NCBI GenBank assembly: GCA_963796055.1
Contig: CAWCKH010000004.1
Coordinates: 960,001-1,024,000, forward strand
Direction of reading: 5' to 3'
Origin: an uncultured delta proteobacterium
Lineage (GTDB): Bacteria; Myxococcota; Myxococcia; Myxococcales; Myxococcaceae
Length of the DNA: 64,000 nt
Below the pieces are notes generated by a model. It did no database searches and was not told the origin of the DNA. It saw nothing but the letters and a program-made list of their open reading frames with translations. Both the position numbers and the translations under genes were made by a program. This document shows positions 28,107-64,000 of the stretch, in pieces (the stretch's first letter is position 1; every line of letters starts with the position of its first letter).

Positions 28107-28461
28107 GTAACGAGGTGTCTGGCACCTCGATGGGCGCCCCCCGGGCGTCACCAGGCGTCCGGTCACGAGGTGTCTGGGGCCGGCCGGGCCCAGGGCCGGG
28201 GCCCGTAACGAGGTGTCCGTAACGAGGTGTCTGGCACCTCGATCCGGCACCTCGATCCGCGCCTCGATCCAGAGGCAACGAGGTATCCGGCATCGCGGTC
28301 CCGCTGCGCGATGCCGGCCGGTCCCGGGATGCCACGTCCCGGGAGCGGGACAGCCGGAACGGAAGGGAGCGCGCTCCCGACTGGAGGGCCGGTTGCCCAG
28401 AGCGCTCGTGGGCGCCAGTGGATGGAGCCGTAACGAGGTGTCCGTAACGAGGTGTCTGGCA
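28107..28461 (+). repeat. Cluster of GTAAC-hairpin (REP-like) repeats
   Basis: GTAACGAGGTGT cores at 28107, 28205, 28219, 28430, 28444; variants at 28162, 28275; last copy split by IS. Confidence 0.92.
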
Positions 28462-29756
28462 CTGACGAATCCCCACTTCTCGTGAGGCAGAGCGCGAGGA
28501 AAGTCGGGAGCTTGAACGGCGCGTGGCCGCGACACGTCACGCTTGTTCTTGTGAGAAAACCAGGATCAGTAGACGCGGCCCGCGCCGCGCTTCTTGTCGC
28601 GCGTTTCACCAGCCCTCTGCAAGCAGTCCTCGACACCCGGCTCGTCAGCGCGCTGACGGTCGCAGTGACGGCGGCCTGCATGGGCGCCCAGCTGACGCTG
28701 ACGTCCCTGGGGCGATGGCTTCCCGGACCAGCGCTTCGCAAGCACTCAGTGAAGCGCATCGACCGGCTCCTCGGGAACAACAGGTTGCACCTGAAGCTGG
28801 CGGCGTGTTGGGCAGCGCTGGCCGCCCTTCCCGCGAAGGGCCGCATCGTCCTCCTCATCGACTGGACGGGCGCCAACGACGGCAAGCAGTGGTGGGTGCT
28901 CAGTGCGTCCCTCGCCGCCGCTGGCAGAGCCATCCCGCTCTACGACGCCGTCTTCGGCAAGGGAGAGTACGACTCGGTCCGAGCACGGGAGACCTTCCTG
29001 CGAGAGCTCGAGCGGATTCTGCCTCCGTGCAGGCGAGTCATCTTCGTGGCCGATGCTGGCTTTCGGGTGCCCTTTCTCAAGCAGCTGGCTTCCCGCGGCT
29101 GGGACTTCGTCGTCCGTCTACGTGGCCGCCCCTACGTCCTGCTCAAGCGCACCGGTGAGAGCTTCCGGCTGAAGGAACTCCGCCGTCGCGCAAGGCCAAC
29201 GGCAGCGTCGCTCGGCCCGGCACAGGTTTGTCGAGGTAGCAAAGCCTTCGTGTGCCGCCAACTCGTGCTCTTCCGGACGCGGCGGAAGCGACGCAAAGCG
29301 AAGGACCGACTGGGCCGTGTCCGGAAGTGGCGACGGAGCCGTCACTACGCCTCCTCGTGGCGGGAACCGTGGGTGCTGCTCACGTCCCTGCCGGACGGCG
29401 CCGAGAGGATTCGGCAGCTCTACTCGATGCGCATGGCCATCGAGGAGACCTTCCGAGACATCAAGAACCCACGCCTCGGCATGGGTTTCGCCGGCTCCGC
29501 CTCACGCTCGCTCCCTCGGGTACGCGTCCTGTGGCTCATCGGCGCCATCGCCGCGAAGGTCTGCAGGGCGATGGGCGAGCACGCCGAGAAGATAGGCCTC
29601 GTCCGCGGGCTTCAGGCCAACACCATCAAAGACCGACGGGTGCTCTCCGTCTTCCGTGCCGGGATGCTCGTCCTCAACATACTCCTCGCCCCCCTCCGGG
29701 ACGCTCTTGGCAGTCCACCACCCCTACTGCTCGCATGAGAAGTGGGGATCCGTCAG
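28462..29756 (+). mobile_element. IS4-family (IS10 group) insertion sequence, copy 1, 1295 bp
   Basis: TIRs CTGACG(A/G)ATCCCCACTTCTC; 9-bp TSD TGTCTGGCA at 28453-28461 and 29757-29765. Confidence 0.95.
28551..29738 (+). CDS. IS4-family DDE transposase
   Basis: LLIDWT, VADAGF, YSMRMAIEETFRDIK (Y-R-E-K signature); start uncertain. Confidence 0.93.
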   Translation: MRKPGSVDAARAALLVARFTSPLQAVLDTRLVSALTVAVTAACMGAQLTLTSLGRWLPGPALRKHSVKRIDRLLGNNRLHLKLAACWAALAALPAKGRIVLLIDWTGANDGKQWWVLSASLAAAGRAIPLYDAVFGKGEYDSVRARETFLRELERILPPCRRVIFVADAGFRVPFLKQLASRGWDFVVRLRGRPYVLLKRTGESFRLKELRRRARPTAASLGPAQVCRGSKAFVCRQLVLFRTRRKRRKAKDRLGRVRKWRRSRHYASSWREPWVLLTSLPDGAERIRQLYSMRMAIEETFRDIKNPRLGMGFAGSASRSLPRVRVLWLIGAIAAKVCRAMGEHAEKIGLVRGLQANTIKDRRVLSVFRAGMLVLNILLAPLRDALGSPPPLLLA

Positions 29757-30571: not shown

Positions 30572-30614
30572 GTAACGAGGTGTCTGGCACCGCTTCGAGC
30601 AGATCAGGCACCTC
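30572..30614 (+). repeat. GTAAC-hairpin repeat plus extra right half
   Basis: GTAACGAGGTGTCTGGCACC then GGCACCTCG. Confidence 0.88.
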
Positions 30615-35330: not shown

Positions 35331-35527
35331 GTCACGAGGCGTCCGGTACCGCGGTCGCGCCTGTAACGAGGTGCCGAGGTAACGAGGTGTCAGGTAACGA
35401 GGTGTCGGTAACGAGGTGTCTGGCACCGCCCCTCGGCACCGCGGCCCGGAGACGGAATCCTCAAGCACCGTCTCAGTTGACATGGACTGGTGTCCGGCCC
35501 GACGGACGTAACGAGGTGTCTGGCACC
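35331..35527 (+). repeat. Cluster of GTAAC-hairpin repeats with four tandem left halves
   Basis: Copies at 35331 (variant), 35363, 35379, 35394, 35408, 35508. Confidence 0.92.
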
Positions 35528-40299: not shown

Positions 40300-41594
40300 C
40301 TGACGGATCCCCACTTCTCATGCGAGCAGTAGGGGTGGTGGACCGCCAAGAGCGTCCCGGAGGGGGGCGAGGAGTATGTTGAGGACGAGCATCCCGGCAC
40401 GGAAGACGGAGAGCACCCGTCGGTCTTTGATGGTGTTGGCCTGAAGCCCGCGGACGAGGCCTATCTTCTCGGCGTGCTCGCCCATCGCCCTGCAGACCTT
40501 CGCGGCGATGGCGCCGATGAGCCACAGGACGCGTACCCGAGGGAGCGAGCGTGAGGCGGAGCCGGCGAAACCCATGCCGAGGCGTGGGTTCTTGATGTCT
40601 CGGAAGGTCTCCTCGATGGCCATGCGCATCGAGTAGAGCTGCCGAATCCTCTCGGCGCCGTCCGGCAGGGACGTGAGCAGCACCCACGGTTCCCGCCACG
40701 AGGAGGCGTAGTGACGGCTCCGTCGCCACTTCCGGACACGGCCCAGTCGGTCCTTCGCTTTGCGTCCCTTCCGCCGCGTCCGGAAGAGCACGAGTTGGCG
40801 GCACACGAAGGCTTTGCTACCTCGACAAACCTGTGCCGGGCCGAGCGACGCTGCCGTTGGCCTTGCGCGACGGCGGAGTTCCTTCAGCCGGAAGCTCTCA
40901 CCGGTGCGCTTGAGCAGGACGTAGGGGCGGCCACGTAGACGGACGACGAAGTCCCAGCCGCGGGAAGCCAGCTGCTTGAGAAAGGGCACCCGAAAGCCAG
41001 CATCGGCCACGAAGATGACTCGCCTGCACGGAGGCAGAATCCGCTCGAGCTCTCGCAGGAAGGTCTCCCGTGCTCGGACCGAGTCGTACTCTCCCTTGCC
41101 GAAGACGGCGTCGTAGAGCGGGATGGCTCTGCCAGCGGCGGCGAGGGACGCACTGAGCACCCACCACTGCTTGCCGTCGTTGGCGCCCGTCCAGTCGATG
41201 AGGAGGACGATGCGGCCCTTCGCGGGAAGGGCGGCCAGCGCTGCCCAACACGCCGCCAGCTTCAGGTGCAACCTGTTGTTCCCGAGGAGCCGGTCGATGC
41301 GCTTCACTGAGTGCTTGCGAAGCGCTGGTCCGGGAAGCCATCGCCCCAGGGACGTCAGCGTCAGCTGGGCGCCCATGCAGGCCGCCGTCACTGCGACCGT
41401 CAGCGCGCTGACGAGCCGGGTGTCGAGGACTGCTTGCAGAGGGCTGGTGAAACGCGCGACAAGAAGCGCGGCGCGGGCCGCGTCTACTGATCCTGGTTTT
41501 CTCACAAGAACAAGCGTGACGTGTCGCGGCCACGCGCCGTTCAAGCTCCCGACTTTCCTCGCGCTCTGCCTCACGAGAAGTGGGGATTCGTCAG
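40300..41594 (-). mobile_element. IS4-family (IS10 group) insertion sequence, copy 2, 1295 bp
   Basis: Same TIRs; TSD TGTCTGGCA at 40291-40299 and 41595-41603; inverted relative to copy 1. Confidence 0.95.
40318..41505 (-). CDS. IS4-family DDE transposase
   Basis: Same as copy 1 except RRKR/RRKG and GSPPP/GGPPP; start uncertain. Confidence 0.93.
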   Translation of the reverse strand: MRKPGSVDAARAALLVARFTSPLQAVLDTRLVSALTVAVTAACMGAQLTLTSLGRWLPGPALRKHSVKRIDRLLGNNRLHLKLAACWAALAALPAKGRIVLLIDWTGANDGKQWWVLSASLAAAGRAIPLYDAVFGKGEYDSVRARETFLRELERILPPCRRVIFVADAGFRVPFLKQLASRGWDFVVRLRGRPYVLLKRTGESFRLKELRRRARPTAASLGPAQVCRGSKAFVCRQLVLFRTRRKGRKAKDRLGRVRKWRRSRHYASSWREPWVLLTSLPDGAERIRQLYSMRMAIEETFRDIKNPRLGMGFAGSASRSLPRVRVLWLIGAIAAKVCRAMGEHAEKIGLVRGLQANTIKDRRVLSVFRAGMLVLNILLAPLRDALGGPPPLLLA

Positions 41595-41964
41595 TGTCTG
41601 GCACCTCTCGGAGGCGGGCCCCCTGGCCTTTGCGCGACCCGGCGGGGCGTGCTGACCTTGGCGGCAGGCAGGAGACCCCATGGCCCGCCGGTAACGAGGT
41701 GTCCGGTAACGAGGTGTCTGGCACCGCCCCCCGGCACCGCCCCCCCGGGGGGCACCCGGGGCCCCGGTAACGAGGCGTCCGGTAACGAGGTGTCTGGCAC
41801 GCCTCCGGGCACCGCCTGCGGGCACGTTCCCGTCACGCATCCTGAACCACGGATGGTGCGTCCGCCGCGGCGCACTCCACCCGCAACGCGCCTGAGACCA
41901 GGAGCCAGAATCCTCTCGAACTCAACGGGCCACAGGGTGTCCGTAACGAGGTGTTTGGCACCTC
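41595..41964 (+). repeat. Cluster of GTAAC-hairpin repeats with a duplicated ligD 5' segment
   Basis: Copies at 41691, 41706, 41767 (variant), 41782, 41943; 41595-41690 nearly identical to 41952-42047. Confidence 0.9.
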
Positions 41965-42036
41965 TCGGAGGCGGGCCTCCGGGCCTTTGCGCGACCCGGG
42001 GGGGCGTGCTGACCTTGGCGGCAGGCAGGAGACCCC

Positions 42037-44773
42037 ATGGCCCGCCGCAACGACCCGCTCGAGACGTACCGGCAAAAACGCGACTTTGCCATCACCCCCG
42101 AGCCTGCCCCGGAGCGCCCCGCGCCCGCTCCCACCGGGGCGCCACGGTTCATGGTGCACAAGCATGATGCGACGCGGCTCCACTACGACCTCCGGCTCGA
42201 GACGAACGGGGTGCTCGCCAGCTGGGCCTGTCCCAAGGGGCCGAGCTACGACCCCGCCCAGAAGCGCCTCGCCGTCGAGACCGAGGACCACCCGCTCGCC
42301 TACGGCGATTTCGAGGGCCGCATCCCCGACGGCGAGTACGGCGCAGGCGACAGCATCATCTGGGACCGCGGCACCTACGACACCGTGCCCCCCGGCCAGT
42401 TCGAGGCGCAGCGCCGCAAGGGACACCTGCACCTCGTCTTCAACGGGCAGAAGCTCAAGGGGGGCTGGCACCTGGTGCGGACGCGCCCCCAGGGCGGCAA
42501 GGCCCAGTGGCTCCTCTTCAAGGCGAAGGACGGCACCGAGCGGCCGGACTACGACGTGGTGGCCGAGCGTCCCGAGTCGGTGGTCAGCGGCCGCCGTCTG
42601 ACCCGTGGGCCCGAGCGGCAGAGCCAGCTCCGCGGCGTCCATCCCGACCCGGAAACGCTGCTCGCGCGGGTCTGGCCGCCGATGCTGGCCGTGCTCGCCA
42701 AGGGTACGCCGGCGCCGGCGAGCCACTACCTGTACGAGGTGAAGTACGACGGGTACCGCGCGCTCGCCGCCATCTCGGGCGGAAAGGTGTCGGTCCGCTC
42801 GCGGAACGACCTCGACTTCGGCACGCGGTTCCCCTGGGTCTTGCCCGCGCTCTCGCAGGTCGTGGTGGGCGAGGCGGTGCTCGACGGCGAGCTGGTGGCG
42901 CTCGACGCGGCGGGGGTCTCCCGCTTCCAGAAGCTCGGCGATCCCACGGCCGAGCACCGGTACATCGTGTTCGACCTCCTCTGGCTGGACGGCGAGGACC
43001 TCCGGTCACGACCGCTCGAGGAGCGACGCGAGCTGCTCGAGTCGGTGATGGCCAACACCCGTCCGCCGCTCGAGCTGGCGCAGCGGGTCCGCGGCGACGA
43101 GGAGACCGCGCTGGCCGAGGCGAAGCGCCGCGGCTGGGAAGGCCTCCTGGCGAAGCGGCGTGGCTCGCCGTACGTCGGGACCCGCAGCGCGTACTGGCTG
43201 AAGCTGAAGGTGCTCGGAACGGACGAGCTGGTCATCGCGGGCTGGACGCCGATCTCCAACGGGGCGGCGGAGATCGGTGCGCTGCTGGTGGCGGCCCGAC
43301 GGGGATCGCGGTTCGTGTACGCCGGGAAGGTCGGGACGGGGTTCGACCGGAAAATGCGACGGCGGCTCCTCACCCTGCTGAAGAAGGACGAGGTCCCGAG
43401 CCCGGCCATCGAGGGCGCTCCGCGGATGCGCGACGCCCACTGGGTGACGCCGCGGCACGTGGCCGAGCTGCAGTTCACCGAGTGGACCCGTGATGGAAAG
43501 CTCCGGCATCCGTCGTTCCAAGGACTCCGGGAGGACAAGGGTCCGCTGGAGATCGGCCAGGACGAGGCGGCCGCGCCGCGTCCTCGGAAGACGCCGCGGA
43601 AATCCGCAGAGACGGGAACGCGGCGGACGGCCGGGCGCACGGTCTCGGCGGCGCGCGCGCGGACGACGTCGGGACGCGGGGGGTCCACGTCAGGAAAGGC
43701 CGCGGGCGCCACCAAGCGCGGGACCAGGACACGCTCCTCGAAGCGCGGCAGCAGCGACGGCGCCGATCCGGACGGTGCGCCGGTCACAGGATTCTTCGGA
43801 AGCGCTCCGGCCGAGGGTTTCGGGACCTGGCACTCGAACCGGGGGGAAGCAGAGGCGGCTCCGGCGAGCGCGGCGCGCCCGGCCGCCGCCGAGTTCACCG
43901 CCCGGGAGCCTCCGCCCGCCGAGGTACCCATCACCCACCCGGAGAAGGTCCTTTTCCCGGCCTCGAAGATCACTAAGGCCGACGTCCGGGCCTATGACGA
44001 TGCGGTGGCTCCGGCGCTCATCGCCGCGCTCCGAGGACGGCCGCTCTCCTTTCAGCAATGGCCTCAGGGGATCGGCAAGCCGGGCATCTTCCGGCAAGGC
44101 GCGACCACCGCGCCGCCCTGGATTCCCCGGGTGACGGTGCAGCACGTCGACCACCCGCTCGAGCACATCGTCGTCGACCGGCCGGAGACGGTCTCGTGGC
44201 TCGCCAACCAGTCGGCACTCACGCTGCACATGACCTCGAGCCGCGCCGCCACCGTGGACGAGCCCGACTGGGTGGCGTTCGACTTCGATCCCGCCGAGGC
44301 CGGGTGGACGCAGAATCCCCCCGCTGGCGAAGGCGCTGAAGGGGCTGCTCGACGAGCTGAAGCTGATCTCGGTGCCGAAGACCTCCGGGAAGCGGGGGCT
44401 CCACGTCTTCGTCCCGCTCGGGCCGGGACACACCCATGCGCAAGCGCTCGGGTTCGCCGAGGCAGTGACCGGAGCGCTCGCCGCGCGCTTCCCGGACCTG
44501 GCGACCACCGAGCGCGCTCTGAATCGCCGGCGCGGGCGGCTGTATCTCGACGCGTTCCAGAATGGACGGCTGAAGACGATGGTCGCCCCGTACTCGATCC
44601 GCGCGGTCGAGGGTGCGCCGGTCTCGACCCCGCTGGAGTGGGACGAGGTGGACGCGCGGCTCGATCCGGGGAAGTTCAACATCCACACCGTGCCCCGGCG
44701 GCTCCAGGAGCGGGGGGACCTGTTCGCGCCGGCGCTCGCCGGGAAGCAGCGGCTCCCCGAGTTTCGCGCCTGA
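42037..44773 (+). CDS. ligD: NHEJ DNA ligase D (phosphoesterase-ligase-polymerase), frameshift near 44315
   Basis: HDATRLHYDLRLE, YEVKYDGYR, LRHPSFQGLREDK, THPEKVLFP, FDFDP, KTSGKRGLH. Confidence 0.93.
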
Positions 44774-44846
44774 ACGGAGCCATTGGGCTGGTTTGCCGTG
44801 CCGCCTCCACCGTGGTCCCGGCTTGTGGTAGTCGGCCGACTCCGGG

Positions 44847-45416
<570 letters not shown>

Positions 45417-45892: not shown

Positions 45893-45940
45893 GGTACCGA
45901 GGTCCGGTAACGAGGTGTCGGTAACGAGGTGTCTGGCACC
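45893..45940 (+). repeat. GTAAC-hairpin repeats downstream of the RAYT-like gene
   Basis: Cores at 45907 and 45921, degenerate copy just before. Confidence 0.92.
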
Positions 45941-46009
45941 TTGGCGGGCACCTTAAGCGGGCTCGTGAGTTCGGCAACCCGGCGCGGCCCGTCGCGCTCG
46001 GTCTTCGCG

Positions 46010-46936
46010 TCATGCGGCCAGAGGGATCGGCGTGGACCTTGGCCACAGGAAGGGTTTGATCGCGGATTCCGGGAAACAGGCGGTGAGGTCTCCGGTCCTC
46101 CAGCGAATCGAGGCCCGACGAAAAGCCGCGGCGAAGCTCCGGTACCGTTCGAGAAATGCGTCGCGCATCCCCGGGATTGTCGTGTGGCACGGCGGCCGTC
46201 GCCTGCGCTCGGATGGAGGCGGCGGCTGCGAGTGCGGTTGTTGCTTCAGGACCCCGGCAGGCCCAAGGACCTTCCGGGACTGGCGCGCTGCTTGTTTCTC
46301 GATGGCGTCGACGGCTCTCCGCAGGAAGCGCCGGAGCGCGCCGGGCTTCTGTAGAGACGGACTCGGTAGAGGGGTGAGCCGGAGCTCCTCCGGCTCCGCC
46401 CAGCGGCTGTCGAGCAGTGCGCGGGCCGCGGGGCGTGCGTTGCCACTGGCACGACGCGTCCAGTTGAACCATCGAAAGGCCCTGGGCTGACCGTCGAGCA
46501 TGAGCGGCAAGCAGCTCAGTCCCGGCCATTCACGACAATGTCGAACCAGGCCCTCCTTGACCCCGTGGGAGAAGACGTAGGCCACCTTCTCCAGGAGAGC
46601 GGCGTCATCGAGGATCGGCTCCGCTGAGTACCGCCGCTCCCAGAAGCTGCCGCGCCATCCGACGAGCCTCCCGACCTTCTTGGAGATGTTCGTCATCAGG
46701 TACTGCATGAAGGCTGGCAGGTTTCCGCGTGGAGCCCGGACGACCAGGTGCATGTGATTCGACAGGAAGCTGAAGGCGAGTAACTCCACGCCGTACAGCC
46801 GCACTGCCCGAGCCAGTACGCCGCCGAGGACTTCGTTCGTCTCCGGAGACGGACGGAGGAGAAGCCGGCGCTGAAAGCACCGCGCGGTCACCAAGAACCT
46901 CTCTACTGCATTCAGCATTCGGATTGGCCTCGCCAT
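46010..46936 (-). CDS. RAYT-like HUH/Y1 tyrosine transposase with C-terminal extension
   Basis: VTARC, SNHMHLVV (HUH), FWERRYSAEP, single Tyr in VAYVFSHGVKEGLV..EWP. Confidence 0.88.
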   Translation of the reverse strand: MARPIRMLNAVERFLVTARCFQRRLLLRPSPETNEVLGGVLARAVRLYGVELLAFSFLSNHMHLVVRAPRGNLPAFMQYLMTNISKKVGRLVGWRGSFWERRYSAEPILDDAALLEKVAYVFSHGVKEGLVRHCREWPGLSCLPLMLDGQPRAFRWFNWTRRASGNARPAARALLDSRWAEPEELRLTPLPSPSLQKPGALRRFLRRAVDAIEKQAARQSRKVLGPAGVLKQQPHSQPPPPSERRRRPPCHTTIPGMRDAFLERYRSFAAAFRRASIRWRTGDLTACFPESAIKPFLWPRSTPIPLAA

Positions 46937-46966
46937 CGTGACACCCCCCTGTTTCGAACGATGCCA

Positions 46967-46983
46967 AGCAGGAGTTGGGCCAA
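46967..46983 (-). promoter_or_regulatory. Possible sigma54 -24/-12 promoter for the RAYT-like gene
   Basis: TTGGCCCAACTCCTGCT (GG-N10-GC) about 30 bp upstream of ATG. Confidence 0.3.
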
Positions 46984-46999
46984 CAGCGACGCACGGGAG

Positions 47000-47079
47000 G
47001 TAACGAGGTGTTTGGCACCTCGTCGAGTGGCACCTCGTCGAGTCGAAGCAGGCACCTCGTCGACCGCGGAGGCACCTCG
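47000..47079 (+). repeat. GTAAC-hairpin repeat with tandem right halves upstream of the RAYT-like gene
   Basis: GTAACGAGGTGTTTGGCACCTCG then three more GGCACCTCG. Confidence 0.92.
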
Positions 47080-47089
47080 CCCGCAGAGG

Positions 47090-50000
47090 TCAGGATGCGA
47101 GGGCCGCTTCGGGGCCAGCGGACACGGGCTCGGCAGTCTGGGGTACGCCGTCGAGATACACGACCTTCTGCCCGAGCACTGACGGAACGCGGGGACCTGG
47201 CGTGACGACGCCGGTGAGATTGAGCGGGTCAACCGCCGCTACCTCGATGCGCTGCCCCGAGGGGCGAGACCTCCGGATTGTCCGCGCGACGTCGACGGCG
47301 TCCGGAGCTGCGAATTGCTCCCCACCCACCCCGGCCAGGAAACGCCCGCCGCGGATTTCCCCACGGGCCTCTAGCCGCCGGTAGTATCGGACCAGCTCCC
47401 GCCAGGGCGGCGCCAGCGGCTCCCGGACCACGAGGTCACGGAAGACGATTCCCCAGCGCGCCAGCAGCAGTCGGGCCACACAGCCGAGCCGTTCTTCCTC
47501 GCTCACGCCCCCCTCGGGACGGAGCAGCGACCAGCGCCCGGGCCCGCCGCGCTTCAACGCCCGCTGCTGTCGGCGTCGCTTCGGGCTGAGCAGCACCCGC
47601 AGGTTGTCCACCGCGTCGGCGGTCACGAGACCGCGGCCGAGCAGGTCCCATAGCGCGTCCTCCACAGCCTCGATGGGCTGGCCAGAGGAGGAGACCAGCT
47701 CGGGAAAGAAGCATGCCCCGCGCCGCGCGAGGACTTCGGCCACGGTACGGCTCCCTTCCACGAGGTCCTCGGGCCATCCGTCCCCGGCTTCCGAGCGTGC
47801 CACGGCGAGAAGCGCCGGCAGCTCGGAGCGTCGAACGAACGTCAGCGTCGCCGTCCGACCTGGCTTGAGCGCGCGCGCAGTCACCGCCTCCACCTCGGCA
47901 CCCCGGCGCGGCCCGACGATCCTGGGCTCGCGGAGGCTCAGGCGACCCCAGGCGACTTCTCCGGTCCAGCACGCCCGCTCGAGCAGCTCGGCGACGTTGC
48001 CCCGGACACGGGCGGGCAGGAGTACTTGCTCCCAGGCGGCGGCCGGGGCCTCCCAGCCCTCGAGCAGCGAGATTGCCCTGAGCAGGCCTCCCTGACCTCC
48101 GAGCGCATCGCTCGCCTCGAGGTGGTGCCATCGGAACAGGAAGCGCATGAAGTCCTGTGCCGAGAGTGGTTCGATCTCGCGCCGGAGCCGGCCCACGGTC
48201 AGCCGGTGGATCCGCTGCAAGAGCCGCCGGTCACACCATTCGAGCTCCTCGGCGCCAGGCCGGAACGTGCCCCGCAGGACCTGACCGTCGGACTCCAGCC
48301 GATGCAAGGCCAACGTCACCTCGTCCCTGGACAAGGCAAGCGCAACGCTCAGGCCGGAGGCCGTGACCGGCCCCGCGACCTCCATCCGTCCTCGCACCAC
48401 CGCCAGTGCCGCCACCTCCCGTTCCATCGGATTGTCACCGGGCAACGCCGAGAGCTCCGGGGCGATCGCGGCGTCCGGAAACAACGCACGGCCATGCAGG
48501 AGGCGTTCCGCGCAGATGACGAACGAGCGGGTGGCCACTCCCTTCCCTTGCTCCGCGGTGCCAAACACCTCGTTACCCGCCTCGTTAGCCGTGGCGGGTC
48601 TCTCGTGGCCGTCCATCCGTGAGACGGTCAGTCTCGCTGCGCGGCCGGTCGCGACCAGCTCGCCCAGCAAGTGGGGGGGAACCCCTTCTGCCGGCACCAG
48701 CACCGCGGCGAGCAGCCAGTCATGCAGCTCTTCCGCGTCGCGAACCAACGGGCGCGCGTCGGCGATGACCTGCTCGATGGCCGAGGCGTCCAGCGCCCCG
48801 AGCCCCGCCGCGTCCTCCGCGGGCAACGCCCGGCGGACCTGGACCGCCCGGGCCCTCCGCTCCTCCAGCGGGGCGTCGTCGAGGAAGGTGTAGGGCTGCG
48901 AGTTGAGCAGCGCGTGCGCGAGCGGGGACGGCTCGGGCAGGTCGCGCGCCAGGGTACGGATCTCTCCGGCCCGGAGCCCCCGGAGCACCCGCTTCAGCCC
49001 ATCGATGTCGAGCGCCTCGGTGAGGCAGTCCCGGAGCGCCTCGTGGACCAGCGGATGGTCAGGCGGCTCCACCTCGGCCGCGCCGTGGTTGTCCTGACAG
49101 CCGACCTGCGCGGGGAACACCGCCGCCAAGAGATCTTCCGCCCGGGCGCGCTGGATGTGCGGCGGAACGCGGCCGCCACTCTGGTAGCGCGACAGCGCCA
49201 GCGCCCGCGTCGCGCTCCAGCGGAAGCGTGTCCCGAACAGCGGCGCCTGCAGGACGGCCTGGACCAGCACTGACTCGACGGTGTCCGGGTGCAGGAACTC
49301 GAAGATGTCCTCCAGCGCGAAGCTGTGCTGCTCCCCGAGCGACAGCAGGATGCCATCGTCCGTCGCCGCCGCCTGCAGCTCGAAGTCGAAGGTGCGGCAG
49401 AAACGCTTCCGCAGCGCGAGTCCCCAGGCCCGGTTGATCCGGCCGCCGAACGGTGCATGGAGGATGAGCTGCATCCCACCGGCTTCGTCGAAGAAGCGCT
49501 CGGCGATGACGGTGCGCGCGCTCGGCAAGGCTCCGAGCACCTGCCTGCTCGCGCGAGAGGTACTCGGACAGTGACTCGGCGTCCCGCGCTCCGAGTCCAA
49601 GCCGATGCGAGCCAGGCTCCAGCCTCGGGATGGTCGAGCACCTCGTCACGCAGACGTCCCACCTCACGCGACAGCTCGTCGGTCCGGGACGGCGCCTCGC
49701 CCCGCCAGAACGGGATGCTTGGCGGCGCTCCGCGGGCGTCCTCGACTCGCACCACGCCCGCGCGAAGCCCCTGCACGCGCCAGCTGGTGCTCCCCAGCAG
49801 GAAGACGTCCCCACCGTTCATCTCCACCGCGAAGTCCTCGTCGAGCGTGCCGACCTGGCGGCCGTCGGGCTCGGCCACCACCGGGTAGGTGAAGGTGTCG
49901 GGGATCGCGCCGCCGTTCATCAGCGCAGTGAGCCGCGCCCCCTTCCGCGCCCGGAGCAGGTGGTTCACCCGATCGCGGTGCAGATGGACGCGCATCCGCC

Positions 50001-51433
50001 CGCGCCGCTCGCTCACGCCCTCGGAGAGCATCTGGAGGACCTGCGCGTACCGCTCCCAGGACAGGTCACGGTAGGGCCAGGCCCGCCTCAGCAGCGCGTA
50101 CAGCGCCCGCTCGTCCCAGGCGTCCACCGCGCAGGCAGCGACGATCTGCTGGGCGAGCACGTCCAGCGGCGCCTCGGGCATCCGCACCGCGTCGAGCTCG
50201 CCATCGTGAACCGCACGGAGGAGCGCGGTGCACTCCACCAGCTCGTCCCGGGTCAGTGCGAAGAGGATGCCTTTGCTCACCCCGTGCAGCGAGTGCCCCG
50301 CGCGCCCCACCCGTTGCAGGAAGAGCGTGATGCCCCGCGGGCTCCCAAGCTGCACCACCAGGTCCACGGCGCCGATGTCGATTCCCAGTTCGAGCGAGGC
50401 GGTGGCCACCATCGCCCGCAGCTCGCCCCGCTTGAGCTTCTCCTCGGCCGCGAGTCGCAGCTCCCGTGCCATGCTCCCGTGGTGTGCCGAGACTGTACCC
50501 GGGCCGAGTCGCGTCCCGAGGTCATGGGCCACGCGCTCGGCCAGCTTCCGGGTGTTGGTGAAGATGAGCGTCGTCCGGTGCTCGGAGGTGAGCTGCACCA
50601 GCCGGTCGTAGACCTGTCCCCACATCTCGTGGGTCGCGACCGCGCTCAGCGCGTCCTCGGGCGTCTCGAGCGACAGCTGCCACTTGCGAAGGTGTCCCAC
50701 CTGGACCACTGCGCATCCCTCAGGTCGTCCGGTGAGGAAGGAGGCGAAGGTCTCCACCGGCTTCTGCGTGGCCGACAGCCCGATCAGCTGGGGACGGCGC
50801 CGCACCTGCGCCTTCAGCCGCTCGAGCGAGAGCGCGAGATGACTGCCCCGCTTGTCCCGCGCCAGGGCGTGGATCTCGTCGACGATGACCGTGTCCACGT
50901 CACGGAGCGTCTCGCGTCCACGCGCGGCGGTGAGCACCAGGTACAGCGACTCCGGCGTGGTGATGAGGACGTGCGGGGGCCGGCGGAGCATCTGGGCCCG
51001 CTCGCTCGCGGGCGTGTCCCCGGTCCGGACCTGGACCCGGACCGGCTCGGGGAAGAGGCCTTCCCTCGCGGCGAGGTCGTAGATGGCCTCGAGCGGAGCG
51101 AGCGAGGTTCTTCTGGACGTCGTTCCCCAGCGCCTTCAGCGGCGAGACGTAGACCACCGACGTCCGGTCCTCGAGCCGGTTCTCGAGCGCGCGTCGGAGA
51201 AGCCGATCCAGCGCCGCCAGGAACGCCGAGAGCGTCTTTCCCGAGCCGGTGGGCGCAGCGATGAGGACGTCCTCTCCGGCGAGGATCCGCGGCCAGCCCC
51301 GACTCTGCGGCTCGGAAGGCTGGCCGAGCGTCGACTGGAACCACCGCTGGACGAGCGGGTGGAAGGCGGCCAGGCCGGGGTGGACCGCCTCGGCAGCCGA
51401 GGCGAACTGGAGCGGAAGCTGCGGTGCGGCCAT
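47090..51433 (-). CDS. lhr: Long Lhr-family SF2 helicase, frameshifts near 51100 and 49600
   Basis: [48 protein letters not shown]-terminal LARWGIVFR / [13 protein letters not shown]. Confidence 0.9.
48557..48590 (-). repeat. GTAAC-hairpin repeat inside lhr coding sequence
   Basis: Minus strand GCTAACGAGGCGG-GTAACGAGGTGTTTGGCACC, read as [11 protein letters not shown]. Confidence 0.85.
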
Positions 51434-51443
51434 GGCCCGCATT

Positions 51444-51571: not shown

Positions 51572-51614
51572 GGTGCCAGACACCTCGTTACCACGGTGCC
51601 AGACACCTCGTTAC
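51572..51614 (-). repeat. Two tandem GTAAC-hairpin repeats, minus orientation
   Basis: GGTGCCAGACACCTCGTTAC at 51572 and 51595. Confidence 0.92.
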
Positions 51615-52877: not shown

Positions 52878-53103
52878 CGCTACAAACCGCCGACACCGGT
52901 TCGTCACCGCCGGACCGGAATCGACCGAAACTGGCCGTTCTCGCTGCAACGAATCCTCGGTGGGAGTGTCGGATCTCATGCCGGGCTGGCGGCCAGGCAC
53001 CTTTGGCGGGCTGGTAGAGAGCGGCCCGCCCGGGGATCATGCGGAAACCTTTTCGAGGGTTCCCGGGCGGCACGAGGGGAGCGCTGCTCGCGTGGAGGCG
53101 ACG

Positions 53104-54537
53104 ATGCAGGGTCGGCTCGTTTGTGTCTTCGGTCTGGTGGTTTCTTCTCTCGCGCTGGCCCGGCAGCAAGCCCCGCAGCCGTGGGTGCCGCAGGCTGCAC
53201 CGGCGCCCGCGCCGCAGGTCGCACCGGTGCAGTACGCCCCGGCACCGCAACAGCAGTACGTGGCACCTGCCCCACAGGCGGCGCCACCGCAGCAGTACTC
53301 GGCGCCAGCACCGCAGGTTGCGCCGGCTCAGTACGCCCCACCGCCGCAGCAACCGGTCGCGGCGCCAGCGCAGCAGGCCGCCCCGCCGCAGCAGTACGCC
53401 CCGCCACAGCAGTATGCGCCACCCCAGGCCGCGCCTCCCCAGCAGTACGCCCCGCAGCAGGCCGCCCCGCCACAGCAGTATGCACCGCCGCCAGGCCGCG
53501 CCTCCCCAGCAGTACGCCGCGCCGCCCCGCAGCAGTACGCGCCGCCCCAGGCCGCGCCTCCCCAGCAGTACGCCGCGCCTCCCCAGCAGTACGCGCCGCC
53601 TCAGGCCGCCCCGCCACAGCAGTACGCGCCGCCCCAGGCCGCGCCTCCGCAGCAGTACGCCCCGCCAGCAGGCCGCACCTCCCCAGCAGTACGCGCCGCC
53701 AGCTGCCGCCGGGGCCGCGGCCGGAGCCGCCGTCGCTGCTCCTGCTGCTGCTCCCGCGCCGGCTCCGCAGTACTCGGCACCAGCTCCCCAGGCCGCGCCG
53801 CCCGCCGCTCCGGCCCCGTCCGTCGCTCCCGCTCCCGCCACGCAACCTCCGGCGAAGCCGCTGCTGCCGCCCGGAGCCGTCCCGATCCAGCAGGCTCCAT
53901 CCGCCGGTCCGGCAGCCAGCCCGGGGACGCAGTCGGTGGATTCCCAGCCGGGCAGGGCGGTGCAGGAGGACCTGCCGGCAGCCGGCCTGGCGCGCGAGGT
54001 CTACTACCGGGACATGCTGCGGGTCCGCCCGCACCAGACGGACGTCTTCACCCAGCACGGCGCGCGCAAGCTCGCCGCCACCGAGTTCTACCGGCTGGTG
54101 GGCCGCGGTGACCTGGCGTCGGCGTCGGAGGTCGCGCAAGAGCGAGCGCGCCATCCTCTACACCTTCTCGTTCCTCACCTTCGCCGCCGGCGTCGGCTCC
54201 GGCATCTGGGTGAGCAGCAACGCCCAGAACCTCAACGACCCCGCCTGCTTCGCGCAGGGCGACCAAGAGCTACAACCAGTGCGTGGACAAGGCGCAGAAG
54301 ACGAGCCTCTACGGCGCGCTCCTCATCGGCGGCGGCGTCGTGGTGGGCGGTCTGCTCATGACCATCGCCGCGCTCACCCCGGACATGGTGACGACTCCCG
54401 AGGAGACCGCCCGGCTCGCCGACCAGTACAACCGGAACCTCTCCAAACGGCTGAGCTCCATGTCCGAACCACGGGTCCAGGTGGCACCGGTGTTCGGCAA
54501 GGACGGCGGCGGGATCGCCGCGCGCTTCACGTTCTAG
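53104..54537 (+). CDS. Secreted/membrane protein with Pro-Gln-Ala-Tyr repeats, frameshifted
   Basis: Signal peptide, QQYAPP/QAAPP repeats, two TM-like segments, ends GGIAARFTF. Confidence 0.65.
53200..53800 (+). repeat. Coding tandem repeat, unit about 33 bp (QQYAPPQAAPP)
   Basis: More than ten CAGCAGTA(C/T)GC units. Confidence 0.85.
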
Positions 54538-57281: not shown

Positions 57282-57347
57282 CCTGGACGAGGCGCTCGTA
57301 CCACAGAGTGCCGTCTGGCCGCGCACCCCGGGTGAATCGGAGCCCCT

Positions 57348-57503
57348 GAACGAGGTGTCTGGCACCTCATCAAGCACCTCATCAAGGAACCTCCACCCCG
57401 GGGCCCGACAGCCCCGGCGTGGAGGTGAGGCGCAGAGTCGCACCTACATGAAGCCGCCCCCGTAACGAGGTGTCTGGCACCTCCCCCGAGGCACCTCCCC
57501 CGG
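57348..57503 (+). repeat. Two GTAAC-hairpin repeats each with duplicated right half
   Basis: 57348 variant + GCACCTCATCAA twice; 57462 + GGCACCTCCCCCG twice. Confidence 0.9.
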
Positions 57504-61696: not shown

Positions 61697-62491
61697 TCAG
61701 ATCGAGGAGCGATCCTCGCCGGCGAGCACGCCCATCAGCTCCGACCGCGTGCAGACGCTCATCTTGGCGAACAGCCGGGCCAGGGTGTTCCGCACCGTGT
61801 TGGTGGAGATCCCCAGCGCCTGGCCGATCTGCTGGTTGGTCAGCCCGGAGCGAAGGTGCTGGACCACCTCGCGCTCGCGGCGGGTGAGGCGTTGCGTCGC
61901 CAGCGGCCCGTCCACCAGCTGCGCGCGCGTCCGGACACCGGTCTTGTCGAAGATGCGCACCAGCAGATTGCGCACCGCGGCCACCGACCGTCCGGTGGCC
62001 AGGGCGATCTGCGCGTTGGTGTACCCGAGCCGCACGTAGTCGATGACCTCCGACTCGCGTGCACTCAGCGCCCGCGCGGGCCCCAGGCCGGTGGGCGACG
62101 TTCCCTCGTCCGCCAGGATCAGCGTGGGGAGGAGGGACTCGAGCAGCTCCACCTCCTCGGAGGAGAACAGGCCATCGTCGCGCTCCAGGACCAGCGCCGC
62201 AGTCGGCCTTCCGGAACGCTCCAGCGCCAGTCGCAGCACACCAGGCGCACCGACCGCGTGCGGCCCCATCGACGGATCCGCGGGCCCGGGCACCTCGGTC
62301 GGCGCCTCCCCCGAGGACGGCGCGTCGTGCCAGCCTCCCCGGCTGAAGGGGACGAGGCCGCCGATCGCCTGGAGCGCGCCGCGCCGGAACGCCGCTCGGG
62401 AATCACAGCCCAGCGCCAGCAGGGTGAGCTCGTTCAGCAGCTCCAGCACGCCGACCGGGCGGCGCGGCTCGAGCAGAGCCACACCCGTCAT
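61697..62491 (-). CDS. LuxR-family regulator with two tandem HTH domains
   Basis: LSARESEV..GYTNAQIA and LTRREREV..GLTNQQIG..ISTNTVRN. Confidence 0.88.
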   Translation of the reverse strand: MTGVALLEPRRPVGVLELLNELTLLALGCDSRAAFRRGALQAIGGLVPFSRGGWHDAPSSGEAPTEVPGPADPSMGPHAVGAPGVLRLALERSGRPTAALVLERDDGLFSSEEVELLESLLPTLILADEGTSPTGLGPARALSARESEVIDYVRLGYTNAQIALATGRSVAAVRNLLVRIFDKTGVRTRAQLVDGPLATQRLTRREREVVQHLRSGLTNQQIGQALGISTNTVRNTLARLFAKMSVCTRSELMGVLAGEDRSSI

Positions 62492-62733
62492 CCGGCACTC
62501 CCTCGGCTCCCGTGTGCCGCCGGAGAGCCAGGACCCGGCGGCTTCCCACCCGTGGGAAGGTGTCCTTCACCGTGTCTGGGCAGCGGCATGGCGGACGCTC
62601 GAGGTTCGGGCGAACTGGTGCAGCGACACCTCGGGGGAACCCCGCCGCTCCCGGCGTTGCGTCTGCCGTTGGCTGTTCTGCCCGCGCGCGCGGAGGAACT
62701 GTCCCCTCCCACCCCGCCGCGGGCCCGGAGCCG

Positions 62734-63573
62734 CTACCCGGTTGCGCGCGAGGGCCCCGCGCCTTCCGTCAGCGCGCCGATCAGCTCCGAGCGGGTGGAC
62801 ACGCCCACCTTCTCGAACAGCCGGGCCAGCGTGTTCCGCACCGTGTTGGTGGAGATGCCGAGCGTCCGGCCAATCTCGCGGTTGGTGAGCCCGGCCCGCA
62901 GGCCCTGGACGATCTGGGATTCGCGAGGGGTGAGCCCCCGGGTCACCACCGGGCCGTCCACCAGCTGGGCCCGCGTTCGGACGCCGGTCTTGTCGAAGAC
63001 CCGCACCAGGAGGTTGCGCACCGCTGCCACCGACCGGCCGGTGGCCAGGGCGATCTGCGCGTTGGTGTACCCCAGACGCAGGTACTGAACGACGTCCGCC
63101 TCCCGTGGGGACAGCGCCCGCGCAGCCTGCGCGCCCGTGCCCCGGGCGGCGCCCTCGTCGGCGAGGATCAGCGTCGGAAGCAGCGTCCGGAGCCGGCTCA
63201 CCTCGTCGGCTCCGAACGCCCCCTCGTCCCTCTCGACGATCAGGGCGGCCCGCGTCCGCCCGTACCGTTCGAGATCCAGCCGCAGCTCCACGCCCCTGCC
63301 CCTCTGCTCCGGATGGCTCGCCAGCCCCGCCACGGGCGCACCGAGGCTCACCGGGCGGCGGACCGGGAACTCCACCCGGAGCTCGCCGAAGGGAGGCACC
63401 TCCTCCCAGGCGCCCCGATCGAACGGGAGCGCCCGGGCCAGCAGCCCGAGCGCGCGCGCGCGGAACTCGGCCTTCGAGGAGGCGGAGAGCGCCAGCCGGG
63501 TGAGCTGGGAGATGAGCTCGGCGGCGTCCGACGCCGTCGATGGAGCGACCACCGTGGCGTTCAGGGCGGTCAT
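62734..63573 (-). CDS. LuxR-family regulator with two tandem HTH domains
   Basis: LSPREADV..GYTNAQIA and LTPRESQI..GLTNREIG; GGAGG before ATG 63573. Confidence 0.88.
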   Translation of the reverse strand: MTALNATVVAPSTASDAAELISQLTRLALSASSKAEFRARALGLLARALPFDRGAWEEVPPFGELRVEFPVRRPVSLGAPVAGLASHPEQRGRGVELRLDLERYGRTRAALIVERDEGAFGADEVSRLRTLLPTLILADEGAARGTGAQAARALSPREADVVQYLRLGYTNAQIALATGRSVAAVRNLLVRVFDKTGVRTRAQLVDGPVVTRGLTPRESQIVQGLRAGLTNREIGRTLGISTNTVRNTLARLFEKVGVSTRSELIGALTEGAGPSRATG

Positions 63574-64000
63574 CGCGCACCTCCGGCCGCCGCCTGGACC
63601 AGCAGCCGCGAGGTCGCCAGGCCCACCAGCTCGGAGCGCGTGCCCACTCCCGTCTTCCGGTAGAGGCGCACCAGCTGGTTGCGCACCGTGGCCGGGGAGG
63701 TCCCGAGCGCCCGGGCGATGTCGTCGTTCCGGAATCCCCGGACCAGGTACGCGAAGATCTGCCGCTCGCGCGGCGACAGGGACACCCCCACCGTCTCGCC
63801 GACCTCGACCTGTCGCTCGTCGCCGAGCTGGAGCACCGGCCGGAGCTGGCCGAGGACGGACAGCTCGTCGGTGGTGAATGGACGGACCCTGGAAACCGAC
63901 AGCGCGGAGGTCGAACGCTCCCCCACCCGAAGCACACAGCACATGAGCTCACGTCCCGTCGCGGACCAGTCCCGCTCACCCGGCCCACACAGCACCCATC
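63570..64000 (-). CDS. LuxR-family regulator, C-terminal part (runs off window)
   Basis: LSPRERQIFAYLVRGFRNDDIARALGTSPATVRNQL. Confidence 0.85.
   Translation of the reverse strand, partial: WVLCGPGERDWSATGRELMCCVLRVGERSTSALSVSRVRPFTTDELSVLGQLRPVLQLGDERQVEVGETVGVSLSPRERQIFAYLVRGFRNDDIARALGTSPATVRNQLVRLYRKTGVGTRSELVGLATSRLLVQAAAGGAR

Follow-up and report, generated by a model that had tools for sequence, protein, structure and literature searches.

The presence of a gene for a HUH nuclease between two copies of the same short repeat raises the question of what kind of system the enzyme and the repeat form together, and of how such a repeat has come to be propagated. A sequence-only reading of this locus had suggested a REP/RAYT system of a new class. 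The window, that is, the whole stretch of 64,000 nucleotides analysed, belongs to the 5.53-Mb source genome (G000; the other G numbers designate comparison genomes), and the ORF under study, here called gene A, was found on its minus strand at 46010-46936, with the 308 amino acids, the HUH motif (NHMH) and the single tyrosine that had been reported. The product is a class-2-like TnpA-Y1 HUH nuclease, in which H61 and H63 belong to the sequence SNHMH (residues 59-63) and the candidate catalytic tyrosine, Y120, follows H63 by 57 residues, the HUH motif and the tyrosine standing at the usual class-2 spacing. These residues are conserved in the 124 full-length rows of the family (H61 in 123, H63 in 118 and Y120 in 120), while the Y-x3-NP signature that the accessible text of PMC6006769 gives for class 2 is replaced by Y-x3-HG (YVFSHG). 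In 124 rows of the wider family this position reads HG in 58, QG in 25, NP in 15 and NG in 10, the NP form being present in the clade designated f7.

The assignment to known protein families is limited to the nuclease domain. The Pfam family Y1_Tnp was matched with 27 bits (cut-off 23), and the product scored below the cut-offs of both the NCBIfam RAYT family NF047646 (54.4 versus 80 bits) and the IS200 family NF033573 (15.2 versus 55 bits). In the predicted structure (pLDDT 83), the nearest fold appears to be that of E. coli TnpA-REP (PDB 4er8), the top match in Foldseek (E 8e-7) and also in VIA (Z 14.4, rmsd 2.7 over 153 residues), where IS608 reached Z 8.6; Y120 aligns with the tyrosine of 4er8. 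The C-terminal part, of about 160 residues, corresponds to no known family: Y1_Tnp was the sole match of a Pfam-type search in this product and in seven of seven further family members, the Atlas returned no family for residues 140-300, and structure searches with the full-length model gave no fold match over this part.

A profile search collected 730 clusters (50% identity) at E below 1e-30, the best 150 of which are mostly of about 300 amino acids, and those relatives with names on record are Myxococcaceae, in line with the myxobacterial family previously proposed. Of 61 genomes, 23 contain homologs, among them the 13 of the genus. Gene A lies directly after lhr in 11 of 11 full-length orthologs, which form one clade; it is a single-copy gene at a fixed locus, inherited vertically within the genus. 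Its relatives are not single-copy: G021 has seven copies, two of them nearly identical (L049 and L051), and Cystobacter fuscus has 13 loci, many of them broken. The only other Y1 copy in G000, paralog B, is 61% identical to gene A and carries its own variant of the repeat. A third, paralog D, has its own repeat variant and cloud of dispersed copies in G007 and G004; in the latter (C21:633038-633950) the gene is frameshifted and the cloud intact, which may reflect an assembly error or a recent loss.

The repeat itself, the 20-mer GTAACGAGGTGTYTGGCACC, stands on the plus strand on both sides of gene A. The upstream (left) copy, at 47000-47019, is separated from the start codon by 63 bp, and the downstream one, at 45921-45940, from the stop codon by 69 bp, as expected from the earlier description of a same-strand repeat within about 70 bp of each side. 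The starts of the duplications discussed below place a putative nick between 47013 and 47014 in the former and between 45934 and 45935 in the latter. Of the GTAAC-headed imperfect palindrome with an optional TC tail described at first, the motif was recovered on both sides, but the TC tail is present only upstream and the hairpin has little stability (-4 to -9.4 kcal/mol over the four strands of the two flanks, z -0.7 to -2.3). The window contains 20 matches with up to three mismatches, with none expected from 100 shuffles, and the whole genome 39, so half of all copies lie within about 1% of the genome. The type A 20-mer is confined to the genus, occurring in 13 of 13 of its genomes and in none of 48 others; this distribution, together with a separate variant for each paralog, argues for the pairing of protein and repeat that had been postulated.

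The 20-mer consists of a 14-nt inner arm, GTAACGAGGTGTYT, followed by an outer GRCACC. At 44 of 52 homolog loci, the left end reads, from inside to outside, a clade-specific arm, a T and then GRCACC ([GC]GGTC in family f7); the other eight are without this pattern, and in two of them the motif is reversed. The GTAAC sequence, which is 90-99% conserved in the type A copies of the genus, makes up the distal portion of the clade-specific inner arm; paralogs B and D and the other genera keep GRCACC and the preceding T, but not GTAAC. It is part of a terminal-repeat-like end, and its reading as a REP-like head is not supported. Nor is the direct orientation supported as the mark of a class. The upstream motif has the same orientation at the gene A orthologs, and the ends are direct for gene A, but in G021, Cystobacter and the f7 loci the homologous ends form inverted pairs, and paralog B has no clear right end. 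A motif is found in the flanks of homologs, and the hairpin is absent in this form from the Cystobacter ends. As judged from sequence, the repeat unit is the end of an element, comparable with the TIRYT ends of PMC3733652 (accessible text), and is no REP with an altered head, because of the left-end pattern shared across clades, the weakness of the hairpin and the absence of this form in Cystobacter. The idea that the dispersed copies were empty donor joints, made of two outer halves, was dropped, the type A and G021 copies being solo ends (inner arm plus outer half).

The copies do not show a genome-wide, REP-like spread and form instead a local cloud. Of the 20 non-flank type A loci in G000, 11 are found within 100 kb of gene A, where 0.72 would be expected, and gene B has none of 22 in its vicinity; of the non-flank type B loci, six of 11 lie near gene B (0.40 expected) and 0 of 13 near gene A (Fisher P 8e-5). 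An unrelated repeat, taken as a control, had one and four of its 34 loci near A and B, with no such pattern near A. Moreover, seven of 10 non-flank type D loci in G007 and five of nine in G004 fall within 25 kb of paralog D, and in G053, from another family, seven of nine matches belong to gene ends, and two lie elsewhere, at 14 and 21 kb from a gene. Clustering is weak in G021 (6/18 within 100 kb, P 0.04), and among the Cystobacter matches listed (100 of 124, grouped by hand) 11 of 54 non-flank loci lie within 50 kb, versus 7% expected. The G004 and G007 genomes were discarded as independent replicates of the A cloud because its sites are orthologous across the genus. A replication-strand bias was not apparent either, the orientations of the A and B sites showing no clear switch across dnaA (C4:1,355 kb).

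In the window, the plus-strand sites of the cloud include a direct pair with duplications (28107-28238), a single copy (30572-30591), a direct pair with stacked partial duplications (35363-35527), several copies upstream of ligD (41691-41962) and a direct pair 115 bp apart with duplications (57347-57481). On the minus strand, one copy forms an in-frame insertion within a loop of Lhr, the helicase, where it encodes NEVFGT (48557-48576), and two tandem copies, orthologous across the genus, occupy 51572-51614. Beside the ligD copies, a 97-nt duplication (41594-41690 and 41951-42047) extends from the repeat through the leader and the first ligD codons, creating a false ligD start 357 bp upstream. 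Both ligD (42037-44859) and lhr (47090-51442) are frameshifted in the assembly; these are likely assembly errors, since contigs of the sequencing runs are without the extra bases (one at 44314 in X1 and X3, and one at 49607 in X1).

Most of the mechanistic information is held by the duplications at the flanks of the gene, a feature absent from the sequence-only reading. Partial tandem duplications adjoin both flank copies: at 47014-47080, on the plus strand, they lie at or beside the putative nick of the upstream copy, and at 45893-45953 they border the downstream copy on either side, each strand having its own set. Over 366 strand-sites (G000 and 27 loci, counting both strands of each core and including chance cores), an adjacent tandem duplication of 10-20 nt was found at 89, the background at random positions being 0.1%. 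In 43 of these 89 the duplication starts exactly at W^GRCACC, with none at -12 to -4; 57 of 96 units measure 13-15 nt, and the duplications occur on either strand. Cystobacter has duplications at 34 of 67 sites, 17 of the 34 starting at the same base, with units of 12-15 nt. The start falls at the G in three of eight duplicated sites of other genera and in one of two of f7, and G021 has duplications at two of 26 sites, neither starting at the G. Remote copies in G000 also carry duplications, so the action is not exerted only in cis. Duplication polymorphisms were not seen in the contigs of four runs, which are short and of low depth. The W^G start would fit a sequence of nicking, primed synthesis and rejoining. 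At two further loci, L069 (Cystobacter, G061 C2:10288 kb) and L055 (G053 C1:4620 kb), part of the Y1 gene itself, from its 3' or 5' side, is duplicated beside an extra end motif, and longer tracts may be copied there by the same process.

We consider it probable that gene A descends by vertical inheritance from an IS-like element and has become settled, that the 20-mer is an end of this element, and that the enzyme works by nicking, extension and rejoining, mostly near its own gene. The enzymatic steps, which we infer from the scars left in the DNA, would link the pairing of each paralog with its ends, the local clouds, the fixed start of the duplications and the rewriting of sites that are observed. 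The ancestor would have been an IS-like element that encoded a Y1 HUH nuclease and ended in short terminal repeats. The enzyme would bind the inner arm, nick at T^G and hold the G side as a 5'-phosphotyrosine, as suggested by the chemistry of HUH enzymes, which leave a 3'-OH and a 5'-phosphotyrosine (PMC8266576, accessible text). A host polymerase would then extend the free 3'-OH, mostly by 12-15 nt, and the enzyme would rejoin the extended strand to the held end, which would give a tandem duplication beginning at the G; to nick, extend and rejoin is the amplification model of Fig. 7B in the accessible part of PMC3333891. Since the end is nearly self-complementary in the genus, a second site (A^G) would arise on the other strand. 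By a rarer route, the 3'-OH end could be joined to a nearby look-alike target, and short-patch repair would then insert the inner arm or overwrite the target, this writing of arms seeding new sites and homogenising old ones. The activity would peak within tens of kb of the gene and reach sites hundreds of kb away.

Comparison among genomes shows that the sites are old, yet still being rewritten. The Lhr copy at 48557 is present in nine of nine parsed rows of the same genus and in none of nine outgroup rows (nine of the 27 loci fell outside the parsing pattern), with variable flanks. Over six orthologous sites, the loop variant groups by genome (P 0.005, 60 cells), and by site too (P 0.012). 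A variant private to G007 is carried by five of the 12 near loci, none of these five more than 11 kb from gene A, and by 0 of the 19 remote loci, which include clustered ones; a G010 variant is found at one remote locus and, within 5.4 kb, at three loci that are not flanks. Furthermore, in an XdhC-like gene beside gene B, the B motif fills four codons with no change of length relative to G011, a genome that lacks both gene B and the motif at that gene, and whose residues at the motif site resemble an outgroup row. Across 11 genomes, invariant four-fold codons of this gene number three of three inside the motif versus one of 37 outside it, and one of those in the motif is TCA, which accounts for 3% of the TCN codons of G000. 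The motif has probably overwritten four codons of the XdhC-like gene, the alternative being that G011 lost it.

The fate of paralog D bears on the dependence of the repeat on its gene. A D ortholog is present in seven genomes, all of which have D-type repeats (two to 17 matches), and no such repeats occur in four genomes at least 95% complete without gene D. D-type matches are also found in G012 (75% complete; seven matches), which has no D gene in its assembly, and in G011 (68% complete), without a D ortholog. Two old D sites were compared in G000; one is gone and the other, decayed, has a B-like inner arm at about 170 kb from gene B, so action in trans is possible. The former site of paralog D, at G000 C4:1863448-1866618, now holds two unrelated genes and an IS4 copy in the remnant end.

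A more far-reaching version of the proposal, which we regard as possible though rather doubtful, is a gene-centred writing of sequence, in which the 14-nt arm would be copied into look-alikes within tens of kb of the gene, by insertion or overwriting and even inside other genes, with ongoing rewriting and with duplications of 12-15 nt from one base. Several observations count against the explanation that we favour: the orthology of the A cloud, the grouping of the loop variant by site as well, the scarcity of duplications and the weak clustering in G021, Cystobacter clouds without a gene copy nearby, the duplications at remote copies, the D-type matches of G012 and the replacement of NP by HG. 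In a first alternative, the same enzyme, with the same nick, would act freely in trans, the clouds arising only from short-range transfer out of existing ends, with the ends of the gene as first source. Of the 54 non-flank loci among the Cystobacter matches listed, 36 lie less than 25 kb from another one (24% expected), and no gene copy is found close to the clouds at 37-83 kb and 8.51-8.54 Mb; the B-like arm of the old D site, far from gene B, and the absence of the G007-private variant from the flanks of gene A point the same way. Against this, the private variant is not seen beyond 11 kb from gene A, being missing from the remote loci, and the geneless Cystobacter clouds may mark lost copies in a species whose 13 loci include many fragments. 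We hold free action in trans to be unlikely.

It is still less probable that the sites have been selected as binding sites of a tamed protein, as operators or in chromosome structure, with the duplications due to slippage induced by the hairpin or to end joining by LigD. The cores are invariant over long times, silent positions included, they are near-palindromes, and ligD lies 1.2 kb from gene A, all of which would suit such a role. Slippage, however, would not favour one base as is observed (43 starts at 0 and none at -12 to -4), and the start base is the same in Cystobacter, whose end is without this hairpin; selection alone would not carry a private variant to five distinct loci, and copies stand within the coding sequences of Lhr and XdhC.

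The proposed system, a settled element end acted on by nicking and rejoining, can be set beside the systems already described. TIRYT or TIRtron (PMC3733652), subclass 2.1 of TnpA-Y1 (PMC6006769) and Group 1 of the RAYT proteins (10.1101/119735) correspond to one another in the accessible parts of these sources. As described there, this group resembles the present system in its long Y1 protein with a C-terminal extension, in having terminal-repeat-like ends and not GTAG REPs, in its modest repeat families and in its mixture of single-copy and duplicated genes. The ends studied here, which read GGTGYCAR from outside to inside (GACCSAG/GACCCAG in f7), are similar to the TIRYT consensus GGGGWSAS given in the accessible text, but do not match it. 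Unlike the members portrayed in those texts, the gene A product has no match to a C-terminal HTH family (Bac_DnaA_C, HTH_23, HTH_28), shows Y-x3-HG in place of Y-x3-NP and has about 308 amino acids against a median of 238. Subclass 2.1 genes are, in the accessible text of PMC6006769, without REP-like sequences nearby.

The TnpA-REP/RAYT enzymes associated with REP-BIME/REPIN sequences (E. coli 4er8; groups 2 and 3) are alike in predicted fold, in their single copy at a fixed locus, in having one repeat variant per paralog and in the decay of repeats after gene loss, as modelled in the accessible part of PMC3686654. They differ in that their repeats number hundreds genome-wide, in contrast to tens near the gene here, in that cleavage occurs, in the accessible descriptions, at CT sites around the hairpin and not, as the putative cut here, at one base inside the motif, and in the score for NF047646, below the cut-off here. 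In comparison with the canonical REPtrons (2.2, 2.4, 2.5, 2.7 and 2.8) as presented in the accessible text, the repeat has no GT[AG]G foot, a weak hairpin and same-strand pairs; the 55-aa insertion between HUH and tyrosine and the YVDLNP sequence given there for subclass 2.3 are both absent from gene A. The IS200/IS605 TnpA proteins share the Y1 HUH core, ends on both sides of the gene and, with G021 (L049, L051) and Cystobacter, near-identical gene copies, but the gene A product is twice as long, with no Y-x3-Q and no adjoining tnpB, the gene is a fixed single copy in the genus, and the mobile-looking relatives have inverted ends. By analogy, the system would work like a TnpA-REP or a TIRYT system, and, against the accessible definitions, it departs from canonical REPtrons, from subclass 2.3 and from IS200, as well as from subclass 2.1 in its HTH and NP features.

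An ordinary REP-RAYT system, in which a GTAAC guide at the foot of the hairpin directs cleavage at short sites outside it, is very improbable. The fold predicted is indeed nearest to TnpA-REP, and GTAAC is strongly conserved in type A and lies near the foot of the stem. Nevertheless, what B, D and the other genera retain is GRCACC with its T and not GTAAC, the duplications begin in the loop whereas the CT sites of PMC8266576 (accessible text) lie outside it, and the copies amount to 39 matches in all, with direct pairs.

The repeat is also a landing place for an IS4-family element of 1.3 kb, whose five near-identical copies in G000 all interrupt the middle of an A-, B- or mixed-type motif and are bordered by 9-bp target duplications, two of the copies being in the window (28462-29756 and 40300-41594) and three outside it (G000 C4:1865312, 2011200 and 3070210). 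A further IS4 junction was found in the downstream flank 20-mer of gene A in contigs of runs X2 and X3, from one study, and G010 has an IS4 end stub at the same flank site. As 39-63% of the matching 9-mers of G000 fall in the repeat (chance of the insertions 0.01-0.1), these insertions point weakly to a preference for the repeat itself. The accessible text of PMC1525189 describes a similar behaviour for ISRm22, also of the IS4 family, every copy of which lies at the symmetry axis of a palindromic repeat, but with a 6-bp target duplication as opposed to 9 bp here. That repeats and duplications are footprints of the inserting IS4 element is hardly credible: in spite of the five copies in motifs and of seven duplicated arrays starting at offset 4, the edge of the IS4 target duplication, a 9-bp duplication centred on the loop does not agree with the common one of 12-15 nt from the G, the IS4 protein occurs in none of the 12 other genomes of the genus while the repeat occurs in all, and the motif tracks the Y1 gene in every clade examined.

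Other repeats of this genome were also recorded. The most abundant of them in G000, AGGTCAGGGCGGCCGCAGTC, has 160 matches genome-wide (up to two mismatches) and none in the window, and forms tandem arrays of about 85 bp, often from a stop codon (for example, C4:1117471-1117986). It flanks neither Y1 gene of G000, and paralog B was rejected as its driver, the B flanks carrying a different motif. In the window, 52960-54111 is a low-complexity ORF of Pro/Gln/Ala/Tyr repeats (AAPPQQY units), and 61725-63728 contains internal direct repeats of 111-300 nt spaced by about 1046 bp, probably from a repeated-domain protein.

A description of this family was not found in the literature searched, and its myxobacterial members may be included under Group 1 or subclass 2.1 in sources of which part was accessible; clouds of tens of kb, a duplication start at a single base and the overwriting of codons were not found either, in a search thin on subscription papers. 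A cis preference for flanking REPs has already been proposed, in the accessible part of PMC3686654. According to the accessible text of PMC8266576, it is still to be settled how tamed Y1 transposases propagate their repeats, and the present genomes give indications of the base that is cut, of the length of the tract and of the range over which the enzyme acts, a paralog serving as the control for each. Because the genomes give these indications, the nick-extend-rejoin model (PMC3333891) and the cis preference (PMC3686654), as set out in the accessible texts, become directly testable. Moreover, the family is large and spans mobile-looking and settled states, and a HUH enzyme with a short recognition arm and, apparently, one fixed nick could serve as a DNA-joining tool. 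If the gene-centred writing is true, the surroundings of the gene would be a heritable zone of local hypervariability, and the system would be a living intermediate between terminal-repeat IS elements and REP systems.
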